Shown here: positions 963-61,833 of the stretch, piece by piece
Position numbering within the stretch: the first letter of the stretch is position 1
How the letters are laid out: every line of letters starts with the position of its first letter
DNA from: a bacterium
GTDB taxonomy: Bacteria; Patescibacteriota; Minisyncoccia; Phycocordibacterales; JABMNX01
Length of the DNA: 61,833 nt
Reading direction: 5' to 3'
Assembly: GCA_002687905.1 (NCBI GenBank)
Contig: NZBM01000007.1
Coordinates: 1-61,833, forward strand
Notes under the pieces: generated by a model
The model's database searches: none
What the model saw: the letters and a program-made list of their open reading frames with translations, nothing else
Told to the model about the DNA's origin: nothing
Program-made: the position numbers and the translations under genes

Positions 963-1637
963 TTATTCTAAGGCAACTGAATTCACTTGAGATTCATCAA
1001 AATTCTTAAGTTGCTTTCCAGTTTCATTGAGATATTCCTCCTCACTACCAAAGAAATCAAGGAGAGACTCATGCTGGATAACAGAGCGAAAGTTACATCC
1101 ACCAGAATAGTCAACATGGCTACTCCATTTGTATTTCTCCAAATACGCCAATGCTTTATTTGTGTTTTTAACTTTACCCTCGCGCCACTCTGGCATATAT
1201 AAATCTAGCGGATTGAAATGTATGTAATAAGGAATATATAAAAAATGCGCATCTGCTTTTATTAGCACTGATCGATATTTGCCTTGGAAGAGTGCGCCCG
1301 TGCGGTCGTATTTCTCGTTAAAATATTTTGCATACCCCATATTGAGTTTTTTCATGAACCTTGGAATGCCATCATCTACAACAGGGGACACGAGAAGGTG
1401 ATAGTGATTGGGCATCAAACAAAAACAATGAATCTTAACCAATAACCTCCTCTCAACTTTCCTATAAATATCCGTACATCCGATGTCGATAGCTTTCTTG
1501 TAGTGATAGTTGTTCGAGTTTGTGTTCTTTTGGTTATTAAACTGAAATAGATCATGAACAAAACGTAGATAATCTTGGTTGTCCATGAATATTTTACGTT
1601 TATCTACTCCACGATTTAATAAATGCCAAAAATCCAT
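963..1637 (-). mobile_element. REP-associated tyrosine transposase (RAYT, Y1 HUH family)
   Basis: Motifs HLLNRG, CLMPNHYHLL (HUH), GALFQGKY, YIHFNP (catalytic Tyr) and YKWSS; flanked by palindromes. Confidence 0.9.
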
Positions 1638-58829: not shown

Positions 58830-59399
58830 ATGGTTTTTACAAAAAAGAAAAACCAACAAGCTTTGGCGTTTATTGTGCTCTCGGTATCAATTTTTGTTGT
58901 TTGGCATGCTGTGACTTTTAATAAAGAAGAAGTAGGAGGTTTTTCCTTTGAGAAAGTACCAGAGGATGTAGTCTTTTTAAGGCATGAGGAGGACGAAAGG
59001 ATTGCTGAGGAAGAAGGGGGTGTAGCTATGCTTCATTATGCTACGCCTGAGGCAATAGAAAATGGGGGGCCAATATATGGGCGCTTAGGACACACCATAG
59101 TTTCAATTGAGTATGAGATTCCAATAGACAGCATAGGAGAGCGCCCAATAGGGAAAGAAGGTGAAGGAGGATTTGATTTGATTATTGAGGAATTAGCGGA
59201 AGATAAGAATATTGTTTATGACCATATGCACATTGGTATAGCAAACTCACACACCGGGGGCGAACACCAAGATGATGGGCATAACCATGAACATAATTCC
59301 TCACAAAGCCTTCAGGGGGAAGGAGGAGATGTTTATTTGCTTCACTTTATGCTTATCTCGCACGAAGATGAGGTTAGGTACGGTCTAACTTGTAGTTAA
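58830..59399 (+). CDS. Membrane-anchored His-rich protein
   Basis: N-terminal TM; YDHMHIG, HTGGEHQDDGHNHEH and LHFMLISH. Confidence 0.75.
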   Translation: MVFTKKKNQQALAFIVLSVSIFVVWHAVTFNKEEVGGFSFEKVPEDVVFLRHEEDERIAEEEGGVAMLHYATPEAIENGGPIYGRLGHTIVSIEYEIPIDSIGERPIGKEGEGGFDLIIEELAEDKNIVYDHMHIGIANSHTGGEHQDDGHNHEHNSSQSLQGEGGDVYLLHFMLISHEDEVRYGLTCS

Positions 59400-59483
59400 A
59401 GAGTCGCTCTTGTTGCTGGCTTTTGTTTACAGGTGTTTTGTGTGGGTATAGAATGAAACTGTAGTTATTTTAATTTGCTCTCT

Positions 59484-60734
59484 ATGAACAGTTCAAAAAA
59501 AGTTGTTGCAACAACGGTCCTTGTTGTGTTGGTTATTGGTGCTTATTACTTTATACACCAATCAGATGAAGTAGATATAACGGGTTTACATATTATGCCA
59601 AATGGCACGGTCATGAATGGTGCTGGCGAAATATTTAAGGATGCAGAAGTGCTTCCTGATGGAAGAATTAAGCTTGGCAATGGAAGAATTGTAGAGAGAG
59701 ACATATTAAGCTTTCCAAAGCGCGGACCAGAAGACAGGGTGGAGAAATTAGAATATGTGATGAAGGATGGAGTTAAGGAGTTCAATCTTTCCATAGATGA
59801 AGTTCAGTGGGAATATGCCGACGGTAAGTATGTTCACGTTTGGGCATTTAATGGCCAGATTCCAGGACCTGAAATCCGTGTCACAGAAGGGGATAAGGTT
59901 CGTGTTGTTGTAAAAAACAATCTTTCGTATATGCCAGGGACTACGGTCCATCACCACGGGTTATTACTAAATGGAAGTAAATTTGACGGCGTTCCGGGGC
60001 TTGATCAATATCCTATAAAACCTGGCGAGACATTTACTTATGAATATACAGCTAATAATGCGGGGACTCATTTCTATCATACCCACGGCTCAAATCATAA
60101 AGACGTGGCAATGCAAGACGATATGGGTCTTTCAGGCGCTTTTATTATTGAACCTCGAAATAGATTTGACGAGAGGCATTCTTCAAATTATGACAAAGAA
60201 TGGGTTTACATGCTTGACGAGTGGGCAGTTGGAGACAGCGGAGTAAACCACGCACTCCATCTTATGGGTGAGGACGGAGAGCACGTACACCAGACCGCAA
60301 ACGTTTTTACGATAAATGGGAGAATATTTCCAGATAATTTAACTGGAGAGGACACCATCAAAGTTGATGAAGGCGATAAAGTTTTAATTCGCTTAATAAA
60401 CAATGGTAGCGAGGCAATTCATCCAATGCATACCCATGGACATCAGTTTGAGTTAATTGCCATTGACGGGAATCTCGTTCCTTTTGCTGCTCGGCAAATA
60501 ATGGACGTTATAACAGTAAATCCGGGTGAGAGGAGAGATATTTTAATGAGAGCCAACAACCCTGGAACGTGGCTATTCCATTGTCATAACATACACCACG
60601 CTATGGGAGGTATGATCCTGGGCTTCTTTTACAATGGATATGAGCCGTGTTGTTTGGACAATCCAGATGAAGCCGAAGAGCTCTTAGAAGATCACACTCA
60701 TGACGGTAGCGAAGGAGAAGACCACGGGCACTGA
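59484..60734 (+). CDS. Two-domain multicopper oxidase, membrane anchored
   Basis: HHHG, YHTH, HPMHTHG and HCHNIHHAMGGM; N-terminal TM and a His-rich tail. Confidence 0.9.
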   Translation: MNSSKKVVATTVLVVLVIGAYYFIHQSDEVDITGLHIMPNGTVMNGAGEIFKDAEVLPDGRIKLGNGRIVERDILSFPKRGPEDRVEKLEYVMKDGVKEFNLSIDEVQWEYADGKYVHVWAFNGQIPGPEIRVTEGDKVRVVVKNNLSYMPGTTVHHHGLLLNGSKFDGVPGLDQYPIKPGETFTYEYTANNAGTHFYHTHGSNHKDVAMQDDMGLSGAFIIEPRNRFDERHSSNYDKEWVYMLDEWAVGDSGVNHALHLMGEDGEHVHQTANVFTINGRIFPDNLTGEDTIKVDEGDKVLIRLINNGSEAIHPMHTHGHQFELIAIDGNLVPFAARQIMDVITVNPGERRDILMRANNPGTWLFHCHNIHHAMGGMILGFFYNGYEPCCLDNPDEAEELLEDHTHDGSEGEDHGH

Positions 60735-60817
60735 TTTACACTTGTCTGTTATGGCAAAGAGACTAATTCTCAATTACGAAAGACTCCATTACTATATCAG
60801 CATTGTCGTCAAGTATA

Positions 60818-61080
60818 GTTAATGGGGATAGTTAATGGGAATTAATGGGTTAATGGGGATAAGGGGTTAATGGAAGTTAATGGGGATAAGAGTTAATGGG
60901 GATAAGTACAATTAATCACTAAGTTAATGGGAAGTTAATGTTAATGGGTTAATGGGGATAAGTACAATTAATCACTAAGATACGTGGCATAGTATTTTCA
61001 TGCCACGAATGAATAGAGGTTAATGGGGATAAGTACAATTAATCACTAAGATACGTGGTGTTAATGGGGATAAGTACAAT
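60818..61080 (+). repeat. Array of 13 tandem, 5'-coterminal, variably truncated copies of the RAYT left end (GTTAATGGGGATAAGTACAAT...)
   Basis: Units start at 60818, 60831, 60841, 60849, 60866, 60876, 60892, 60923, 60934, 60940, 60948, 61019 and 61060. Confidence 0.9.
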
Positions 61081-61111
61081 TAATCACTAAGATACGTGGC
61101 ATAGTATTTTC

Positions 61112-61783
61112 ATGCCACGAATGAATAGAGTAGCGGTAGGTGATACTGTGTATCACGTCATTAACCGCGCAAACGGCAGAGCCACTATCTTTAAGTCAAA
61201 GAAAGACTACCAACACTTTGAGAGTCTATTAGGAGAGGGAAAACAATTAGTTGGTATGAGAATTCTTTCGTACTGCATTATGCCAAATCATTGGCATCTA
61301 GTGCTTTACCCTAAAAAAAATACAGATATGGGAGAGTTTATGCGCTGGGTAACAACAACGCATGTACGCCAAAGACATTCTCAAACAGAAAGTATTGGGT
61401 ATGGTCATCTCTATCAAGGTACATACAAGTCATTCCCTGTTGAATCTGATAAGCATCTCATTGACCTAATACGTTACGTTGAACAAAACCCACTTAGAGC
61501 TAAACTAGTTAAAAGAGCAGAGAATTGGCAGTTCTCTAGTTTATGGAGAAGAGAGAAAGGTACATCAACACAACAAAAACTTCTTTCTAAATTACCAACA
61601 GCACTACCTAATAACTACATTGAAAGTGTTAATCAAATTTTAAATAAAGAAGTTCTAGAAACGCTTAGAAACTCAGTAAACAAAGGCACACCTCTTGGTT
61701 CTAGTAAATGGACGAAACGCATGGTGGAGAAATATTGCATGGGTAGTACATTAAGAGAACCTGGGCGTCCTAAAAGTGCATGA
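61112..61783 (+). mobile_element. RAYT-like Y1 HUH transposase
   Basis: YHVINRA, YCIMPNHWHL (HUH), GHLYQGTYKS, YVEQNP and WQFSS. Confidence 0.9.
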
Positions 61784-61809
61784 TATTAGGACACATAAAT
61801 CAGTGAAAT

Positions 61810-61830
61810 ATTGTACTTATCCCCATTAAC
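61810..61830 (-). repeat. Right inverted end of the RAYT element
   Basis: ATTGTACTTATCCCCATTAAC is the exact reverse complement of 61060-61080. Confidence 0.9.
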
Positions 61831-61833
61831 ATG

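Follow-up and report, generated by a model that had tools for sequence, protein, structure and literature searches.

The locus and its array

The window considered here is a stretch of 61,833 nucleotides (nt) that constitutes the entire contig C7 (NZBM01000007.1) of a 591,505-bp, 18-contig patescibacterial genome (GCA_002687905.1), rated 99.71% complete. Close to its right-hand end lies an element in which a Y1 HUH transposase gene is enclosed by terminal inverted repeats (TIRs), and immediately outside the left repeat stands a stack of twelve partial copies of that left end, all of which begin at the same base and stop at different points. Comparable stacks recur at the outer ends of homologous elements, and we argue below that they may well be by-products of the transposase acting in place. 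The features of the locus are listed in window coordinates; X2, X3 and X5 denote sequencing runs whose contigs were compared with the window, and C10 is another contig of the same genome.

60818–61059, + strand: array of 12 5′-coterminal truncated copies of the left end, with fillers at junctions (parse; covered junctions recur in X2, X3 and X5)
60818–60830, + strand: unit 1, 13 nt, without filler (parse)
60831–60840, + strand: unit 2, 9 nt and filler A (parse)
60841–60848, + strand: unit 3, 8 nt, A replacing G as first base (parse)
60849–60865, + strand: unit 4, 15 nt and filler GG (parse)
60866–60875, + strand: unit 5, 8 nt and filler AA (parse)
60876–60891, + strand: unit 6, 15 nt and filler A; X3 has a form without this A (parse, X3 contig)
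60892–60922, + strand: unit 7, 31 nt, with the whole 21-nt inverted repeat inside (parse)
60923–60933, + strand: unit 8, 9 nt and filler AA (parse)
60934–60939, + strand: unit 9, 6 nt (parse)
60940–60947, + strand: unit 10, 8 nt (parse)
60948–61018, + strand: unit 11, 71 nt, taking in the start codon and running six codons into the gene; also found as its own 71-nt contig in X3 (parse, X3)
61019–61059, + strand: unit 12, 40 nt and filler T; junction bridged in X2 and X5 (parse, contigs)
61060–61080, + strand: left TIR; its first base, 61060, is the putative top-strand cut site, and the core GGGGATAAGTAC begins at 61066 (sequence, homolog comparison)
61095–61119, + strand: 8-bp stem enclosing the start codon, single-stranded DNA (ssDNA) fold z = −2.75; without conservation across the family (fold test)
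61112–61783, + strand: Y1 HUH transposase gene, 223 amino acids (aa); HUH motif H60-W61-H62, Y122 presumed catalytic (open reading frame (ORF), profiles, alignment, model)
61810–61830, − strand: right TIR; putative bottom-strand cut site after 61830; mirror units follow in X3 and X5 (sequence, contigs)
61831–61833, + strand: right flank ATG, continuing into the reverse complement of C10 (contig overlap, X2 comparison)

Parsed against the complete left end, which begins at 61060, positions 60818–61059 resolve into 12 head-to-tail partial copies of 6–71 nt at the starts listed above, every one of which takes the first base of that end as its own; the unit at 60841 reads ATTAAT and the others GTTAAT. 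The matched lengths are, in order, 13, 9, 8(–9), 15, 8, 15, 31(–32), 9, 6(–7), 8(–9), 71 and 40 nt, the ranges denoting a G common to the end of a unit and the start of the next. Unmatched bases stand at six junctions, namely A (60840), GG (60864–60865), AA (60874–60875), A (60891), AA (60932–60933) and T (61059), and microhomology at the junctions is at most 1 nt. The 71-nt unit runs on into the gene, through the ATG (61112 in the full copy) and 19 nt, that is, six codons. The 10-mer at the unit start, GTTAATGGGG, occurs eight times in the window against 0.06 expected, a count reached in 0 of 100 shuffles, and in the whole 591-kb genome it is found outside the array region only at the end of C10. 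Tandem Repeats Finder returned fragments only, with periods of 8, 13, 18 and 41 and none of them constant: the array is a nested set of prefixes, not a periodic repeat. An initial annotation of this DNA had described 12 extra copies of 6–71 bp behind one shared 5′ boundary, the longest spanning the first six transposase codons, with 1–2 unmatched nt at several junctions and 21-bp inverted ends at 61060–61080 and 61810–61830; parsing bears out each of these statements, and the inverted ends are exact. Its contention that the pattern fits neither a slippage microsatellite nor a CRISPR array agrees with the parse, which shows no period and no spacers, every unit being a prefix of the adjacent end.

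Contigs from other runs and the contig end

The window was compared with Logan assembled contigs from four runs (X2, X3, X5 and X8) of four studies; these were the runs that matched the sequence best and may include the source sample, and their independence is therefore partial. One 2423-nt X2 contig covers 60400–60921, and with it units 1–7, with zero differences; the junctions 61018/61019 and 61059/61060 are bridged by short contigs of X2, X3 and X5, and in X3 and X5 depth is present in 30 of 30 bins. Nothing is concluded from gaps in cover in X8 (~60650–61170) and X2 (60928–61023). The initial annotation had proposed mapping raw or long reads across 60780–61130; the assembled contigs compared here reproduced the covered junctions and brought out unit variants, with no single contig among them spanning the entire array. 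The lack of such a contig, together with the short-read-style way in which the window ends at the element, lends some colour to the suspicion that the array is an artefact of assembling a repeat-rich contig end. We consider this highly improbable: the covered junctions are reproduced without differences in contigs of three other studies, and comparable arrays lie within long contigs at homologous loci (L053 in a contig of 1.66 Mb, L113 in one of 43 kb).

The same contigs reveal variation at both ends of the element. On the left, the filler A at 60891 is missing from one form in X3, and an X3 contig carries one extra 15-nt unit directly 5′ of unit 7. Past the right end, X2 runs straight into flanking sequence, whereas X3 and X5 reach the flank of X2 only after a single filler base, 8 nt that repeat the end in reverse complement, and two further bases; both runs also contain a 61-nt mirror unit, seen as a joint from 61830 through a T to 61770. 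C7 and C10 overlap by 18 nt, the end of C7 (61816–61833) being the reverse complement of the end of C10: C7 continues into C10 at the right inverted repeat, where the assembly broke. The suggestion that a mirror array had caused this break fails for the present genome, in which the break is the 18-nt overlap with C10, and is right in that mirror units exist, in X3 and X5. Between the right end and the flank shared with X2, this genome has ‘ATG’ against 15 nt in X2, so that ~13 nt are missing and one base has been added, a pattern that resembles a deletion anchored on one side at the element boundary. In a metagenome scan the best full-length match to the element was 71% identical and one partial match 77%; that scan yielded no near-identical copy, and the strain-level comparison of the window array is consequently confined to the contigs of X2, X3, X5 and X8.

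Recurrence at homologous ends

Homologs of the transposase are numerous (3441 proteins at E ≤ 1e-10), and whether their loci carry nested arrays, a question raised by the initial annotation, can be answered in the affirmative. In the chain test applied, which is a conservative one, a boundary is set 25–85 nt outside the gene and the sequence is followed outwards through units of at least 5 nt, each of which matches the end from that one boundary and abuts the next with no more than 3 unmatched bases; a positive end is a chain of at least two units, and controls are random positions in the same loci. The test presupposes a common 5′ start, and the coterminality of very short units rests on the window and on the long units of homologs. 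Two other statistics were dropped: one whose template was anchored at a set point, 90 nt outside the gene, that fell inside arrays, and a count of 6-mers over 400 nt, by which real ends were barely separated from controls.

Among 80 loci from species-representative genomes, 21 of 158 ends (21 loci) were positive against 6 of 1600 controls, nine loci having at least three units; among 80 loci on metagenome contigs the figures were 23 of 140 ends (20 loci) against 4 of 1300, with at least three units at 15 loci. Combined, arrays stand at 44/298 ends and 41/160 loci, compared with 10/2900 control positions; the two sets overlap slightly, the 160 loci comprising 148 distinct gene sequences and 39 distinct arrays. 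Positive ends are divided between left (21) and right (23), three loci being positive at both, and the array is always on the outer side. Three of six full-length loci from order-level relatives pass the test and two more (L084, L085) have arrays by eye; interrupted arrays evident by eye and missed by the test occur at L037, L053, L059, L084 and L085. Unit lengths vary within an array, being for instance 7, 7, 13 and 17 at L014 and 7, 12, 17, 6, 7, 7 and 18 at L102, and a single difference separates L113 from L063, namely one extra ~50-nt unit next to the full end. The array of L053, on a Phycisphaeraceae contig, has at least seven units ~60–150 nt upstream of the gene; one of them contains an internal jump, in which a 10-nt leader is joined to 16 nt from around the start codon, and two short units hold the first 1–3 nt of that jump. 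At L084, in the relative G049, three perfect ~52-nt tandem copies lie upstream, each extending from the end boundary to the start codon and first codons.

Such stacks have practical consequences, as stacked ends break assemblies, in the window and in 20 of 80 metagenome contigs alike, which matters for the small, fragmented genomes of uncultured bacteria. In those 20 metagenome loci (of L091–L170) at most 120 nt of contig lie beyond the gene on one side or both, and at several loci the gene starts 34–57 nt from the contig end, approximately at the repeat.

The breadth of this distribution invites the idea of a selected function, whereby stacked partial ends would serve as additional sites for binding, or as decoys, in the control of the transposase or its promoter: arrays span phyla, and the left array lies just upstream of the gene. 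Most units, however, lack the conserved core beyond 1–3 G, arrays are as frequent on the 3′ side of the gene as on the 5′ side (23 vs 21 ends), they differ between near-identical genomes, and three quarters of loci have none by the test. A regulatory role is, on this evidence, very unlikely.

Regularities of the units

Counts in this section cover 45 ends and 147 units, the window included. Units start 4–10 nt outside the G-run of the core, with a leader sequence that varies between lineages, and in 7 of 9 testable ends the unit start coincides with the outer limit of the inverted repeat to within 1 extra nt; an end was testable where the same 10-mer was found at the opposite end, and the 36 other ends fall outside this comparison. 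The initial annotation had called the 3′ ends random, which they are not: of the 138 units with a reference G-run, 77 stop 1–3 nt into the GGG(G) core, a second cluster of ends lies 7–8 nt into the G-run, and a tail extends to 65 nt. Synthesis meeting a bound protein would be expected to give such clustering. When junctions are read on the strand whose 5′ end is fixed, 74 of the 147 units have no filler, and the filler is A in 15, G in 9, AA in 9, T in 3 and C in 1; where present, fillers are 1–3 nt long and mostly purines, and parsing ambiguity may account for part of them where leaders start with A or G. Differences of a single unit between near-identical genomes lie directly 5′ of a copy with the whole repeat, both in X3 and between L113 and L063, and in these comparisons gain is indistinguishable from loss.

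It is among the short units that an account without the transposase has most purchase. Plain replication slippage, a microsatellite-like expansion between short G-runs, could have made some of them, as 97 of the 147 units are 5–9 nt long, often starting with G and ending in the G-run, and some arrays (e.g. L069, L157) are nearly periodic. Against this, units of 6–71 nt in one array share one start and have no period; long units, of 29–71 nt, likewise begin at the common start; every second junction or so contains a filler; units begin where the inverted repeat has its edge; and arrays are confined to the outer ends of this gene family (44/298 vs 10/2900). Slippage as the general explanation is accordingly judged quite unlikely.

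The transposase, its ends and its mobility

The Pfam profile PF01797 (Y1_Tnp) matches residues 11–126 of the transposase at 58 bits (cutoff 23, E = 1.3e-15). The NCBIfam profile NF047646, for REP (repetitive extragenic palindrome)-associated tyrosine transposases (RAYTs), scores 62 bits, below its cutoff of 80, and the NCBIfam IS200 profile 21 bits, below its cutoff of 55. Across 22 aligned homologs there is no change at H60, H62 or Y122 and almost none at W61; the first three we take, from what is known of the family, to be the catalytic residues. An AlphaFold (AF2) model with a mean pLDDT of 80.9 has as its closest match in the PDB the complex of E. coli TnpAREP with a REP hairpin (4er8_A, E 6e-7), followed by the TnpA proteins of ISDra2 and IS608. 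It includes a helical C-terminal extension at residues ~130–207, and no Pfam helix-turn-helix (HTH) family matches the transposase at E ≤ 0.01.

Genes termed TIRYT, for TIR-associated tyrosine transposase, have been described in ‘TIRtrons’ as RAYT-like, with inverted repeats in place of REPs and a TIR motif GGGGWSAS (Di Nocera et al. 2013, PMC3733652), and were later equated with Y1 subclass 2.1, which has an HTH-like C-terminal extension (Quentin et al. 2018, PMC6006769). The gene in the window is a Y1 HUH transposase of this RAYT-like, TIRYT/TIRtron kind, accompanied by inverted repeats and not by REP hairpins, and going by the published class descriptions it probably belongs to subclass 2.1 (PMC6006769). 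The RAYT (REP-associated) label of the initial annotation is thus replaced: the score of 62 bits lies under the cutoff of 80, and no REP or TIR copies occur elsewhere in the genome, which fits a TIRYT. Dispersed copies of the core, MITE- or REP-like and with up to 2 mismatches, were sought and none was found elsewhere in the 591-kb genome, so there is no population of REPs or REPINs.

The flanks of the element are 21-nt inverted repeats, not palindromes. The window core GGGGATAA fits GGGGWSAS at 6 of 8 positions, and GGGGATAAGTAC can be read as a close variant of that motif. Homologs have their repeats in the same places as the window element, with a GGGG-led core within 90 nt of the gene at 134/153 left and 135/154 right ends and the left core mostly 45–54 nt upstream of the start; GGGGWSAS is matched at 42 of 153 left ends, and GGGGATAAG is present at 67 of 153. 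In the stem at 61095–61119 the start codon and the next five bases pair with upstream sequence. A start-codon stem of at least 6 bp occurs at 13/145 homologous loci against 4/145 shuffled controls, and the stem at the right end is not significant (z −0.47). Subterminal hairpins were accordingly dropped as candidate recognition elements, the right stem having that z score and the left being rare in the family. Locus L014 has the same start-codon stem as the window.

As to its spread, the best protein matches (65–80% identity) are labelled with sources that include Minisyncoccia, Paceibacteria and Kaiserbacteria, and those at 44–52% come from Planctomycetota, Nitrospirota and others. The element looks mobile, not domesticated, because it is patchy (present in 8 of 59 relatives searched), because a copy in the same genus is only 47% identical, and because near-identical ends lie in unrelated flanks (L108, L109, L063). 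Mobility and patchiness also give some footing to a history in which the stack arose by repeated imprecise excision and re-insertion at one spot, or by nested self-insertions that were later trimmed. Matching remnants of older copies would then be expected on the far side of the element, where there are none, and a dozen hits at one nucleotide would be needed from an element present as a single copy in the genome; such a history seems to us decidedly improbable.

Other genes of the window are noted in their own right. A second, distant Y1 HUH gene (963–1637, minus strand, 224 aa, HYH motif) is 28% identical to the first and is flanked on both sides by 29-nt palindromes (929–957 and 1649–1677) in a REPtron-like layout; a third, degenerate copy of the palindrome lies inside the gene at 1467–1495, and there is no copy elsewhere in the genome. 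Two ORFs occupy 58830–60734, directly upstream of the array: judged by eye, one of 419 aa carries His motifs resembling those of multicopper oxidases and ends in an acidic/His-rich tail, and the other, of 189 aa, is rich in His. The contig begins with an open-ended ORF (2–925) that has a long Thr/Ser/Pro-rich tail of low complexity.

A proposed mechanism

HUH Y1 enzymes cut DNA, keep hold of the 5′ phosphate through a tyrosine and leave a 3′-OH (PMC3333891). A sequence-specific, protein-protected 5′ end is expected to give a fixed 5′ start, and a growing or resected 3′-OH a variable 3′ partner; units that are fixed at 5′ and variable at 3′, taken with this chemistry, favour a scheme of nicking, extension and rejoining. 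We put the probability that the array is a by-product of the transposase acting in place, through a nick, a short extension and rejoining of the held 5′ end, at roughly 0.55. Its enzymatic steps are all inferred, from the observed anatomy of the array, its recurrence in the family, its restriction to the outer side, its symmetry and its polymorphism.

In this scheme the enzyme would make its nick on the strand reading 5′-GTTAATGGGG, precisely at the outer limit of the inverted repeat, and would stay on the new 5′ end via Tyr122, leaving the flank with a 3′-OH. Host polymerase would extend this 3′-OH, recopying the start of the end and displacing the protein-linked strand, until synthesis halted early, mostly at the conserved G-run, the presumed seat of the protein; one to three unmatched bases might sometimes be added at the halted 3′ end. 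Rejoining of the protein-linked 5′ end to the nascent 3′ end would leave one strand with an extra partial copy, to be fixed by the next replication. Any copy long enough for recognition could go through further cycles, which would build up a stack with a common 5′ start and differing 3′ ends; at the right end, the opposite strand would undergo the same reaction and yield mirror arrays; and resection of the flank 3′-OH in place of its extension would produce flank deletions abutting the end. Recent activity is visible in the extra unit of X3, the mirror units of X3 and X5, the ~13-nt flank loss and the extra unit of L113. The initial annotation had already proposed that the array is a footprint of the HUH enzyme; with arrays at homologs, mirrors at right ends and variation between near-identical genomes, this is now the best-supported explanation, and it is still an inference.

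The fillers bear on a variant that begins with the same nick. Copies would be made on the opposite strand by a polymerase that runs off at the nick, adds 1–2 bases and re-primes internally, a template-switching route that would yield the same final anatomy, with fillers, fixed boundary and mirror arrays, and would ask no unusual joining specificity of the enzyme. Run-off addition usually places an A on the nascent strand. Seen from the strand whose 5′ end is fixed, that A would be a T, yet the fillers there are rich in A and G, with T in 3 of 147; re-priming without homology is inefficient, and microhomology at the window junctions is at most 1 nt; and the clustering of unit ends in the G-run would have no obvious cause. 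This route is therefore regarded as unlikely, if less so than slippage.

It is worth noting, however, that several points weigh against nicking, extension and rejoining as we have set it out. Firstly, the position of the cut, its polarity and the joining to arbitrary 3′ ends are assumed for TIRYT enzymes; TnpAREP and IS608 TnpA act on folded single strands and pick their 3′-OH partner by sequence (PMC3333891), which makes joining to variable 3′ ends unusual. Secondly, short units that start with G and end in the G-run have boundaries ambiguous by 1–3 nt and are compatible with slippage, and the ‘fillers’ of L014 repeat (AC, AC, GAC), so that its 5′ boundary may be fuzzy. Thirdly, the internal jump at L053 is not predicted by the simple model. 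To these may be added the doubtful parses of three positive ends (L003, L028 and L141), the roughly three quarters of loci with no array by the chain test, and the lack of a contig across the whole window array in the runs compared.

Should the arrays be footprints of the reaction, the probable cut site, strand polarity and symmetry of the reaction could be read without experiment, and nature would have supplied evidence for a nick-extend-rejoin scheme so far only proposed for the amplification of REPs and of bacterial interspersed mosaic elements (BIMEs). They would also offer a sequence-only marker of recent transposase activity. As a feature of the whole family, the arrays make an uncharacterised transposition mechanism testable. 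More tentatively, and with a probability that we rate as low though higher than that of any rival above, the transposition of TIRtrons might be replicative and symmetric, following a ‘nick-and-displace’ route that has no description among Y1 enzymes and in which TIRYT would nick the 5′ edges of both repeats on opposite strands and stay on both 5′ ends, and host polymerase primed from the flanks would copy the element out. If so, the arrays would constitute a heritable ledger of aborted initiations, and single-nucleotide cut sites and recent activity would become readable for thousands of elements in uncultured lineages.

Comparison with known systems

TIRtrons offer a close likeness: a RAYT-like Y1 HUH gene, TIRs at fixed distances, a core led by GGGG, the lack of REP hairpins and an extension at the C terminus (PMC3733652, PMC6006769), which in the window protein is a modelled helical segment. 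The window element differs in that published TIRs are single, dimeric or grouped, and in the accessible TIRtron descriptions neither nested, 5′-coterminal, truncated stacks outside the ends nor Patescibacteria are mentioned; its core GGGGATAA moreover departs from GGGGWSAS at two positions. No publication of nested, 5′-coterminal end stacks was found in the accessible literature, in which Figure 9 of PMC3733652 (‘grouped’ TIRs) may show clustering, and the accessible TIRtron and Y1 literature yielded no biochemical study of any TIRYT member.

REPtrons and TnpAREP provide the closest solved fold (4er8_A) and the same nick-extend-rejoin scheme. In the proposed amplification of BIMEs, cleavage is followed by priming of host polymerase from the 3′-OH, the new 3′-OH attacks the 5′-phosphotyrosine, and a tandem unit is added (Ton-Hoang et al. 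2012, PMC3333891, Fig. 7B); resection of the 3′-OH is mentioned there as well. In the BIME model, as presented in that paper, the second 3′-OH comes from a second sequence-specific cleavage and whole units result, whereas the 3′ ends in the window are variable and carry fillers, for which a stalled nascent end is proposed. The window genome, furthermore, has no dispersed repeat family or REP hairpins, and the RAYT score is below cutoff.

With the TnpA enzymes of IS200/IS605 elements (IS608, ISDra2) the transposase shares the Y1 HUH fold, the motifs and the 5′-phosphotyrosine chemistry. Those elements, as described in PMC3333891, lack inverted repeats, possess subterminal hairpins and have one strand processed, whereas the window element has inverted-repeat ends, arrays on both strands and a hairpin that is not conserved in the family.

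A likeness of another kind links the proposed reaction to the rolling-circle initiators (Rep proteins of rolling-circle plasmids and phages, IS91/ISCR, Helitrons and Replitrons), which nick, prime displacement from the 3′-OH and rejoin a held 5′ end, and which leave rearrangements with one endpoint fixed at the nick. Illegitimate recombination at nick sites was reportedly found in pC194 and M13 by Michel and Ehrlich in the 1980s; a review of pC194 contains no passage on it. Replitron insertions, in turn, show ‘fuzzy ends’ (PMC10288648). TIRYT differs in having no helicase, second Tyr or full-circle replication, and its reaction would leave aborted starts piled up, in place of read-through or multimers. 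The likeness of CRISPR arrays and microsatellites to the window array lies in short head-to-tail repeats; the array has no spacers and no constant repeat length or period, and its units are prefixes of the adjacent end. Set against the accessible accounts of all these systems, the type of element, the HUH chemistry and the proposal of nicking, extension and rejoining are known; what seems new is the stack of truncated ends and its use to read the cut site.

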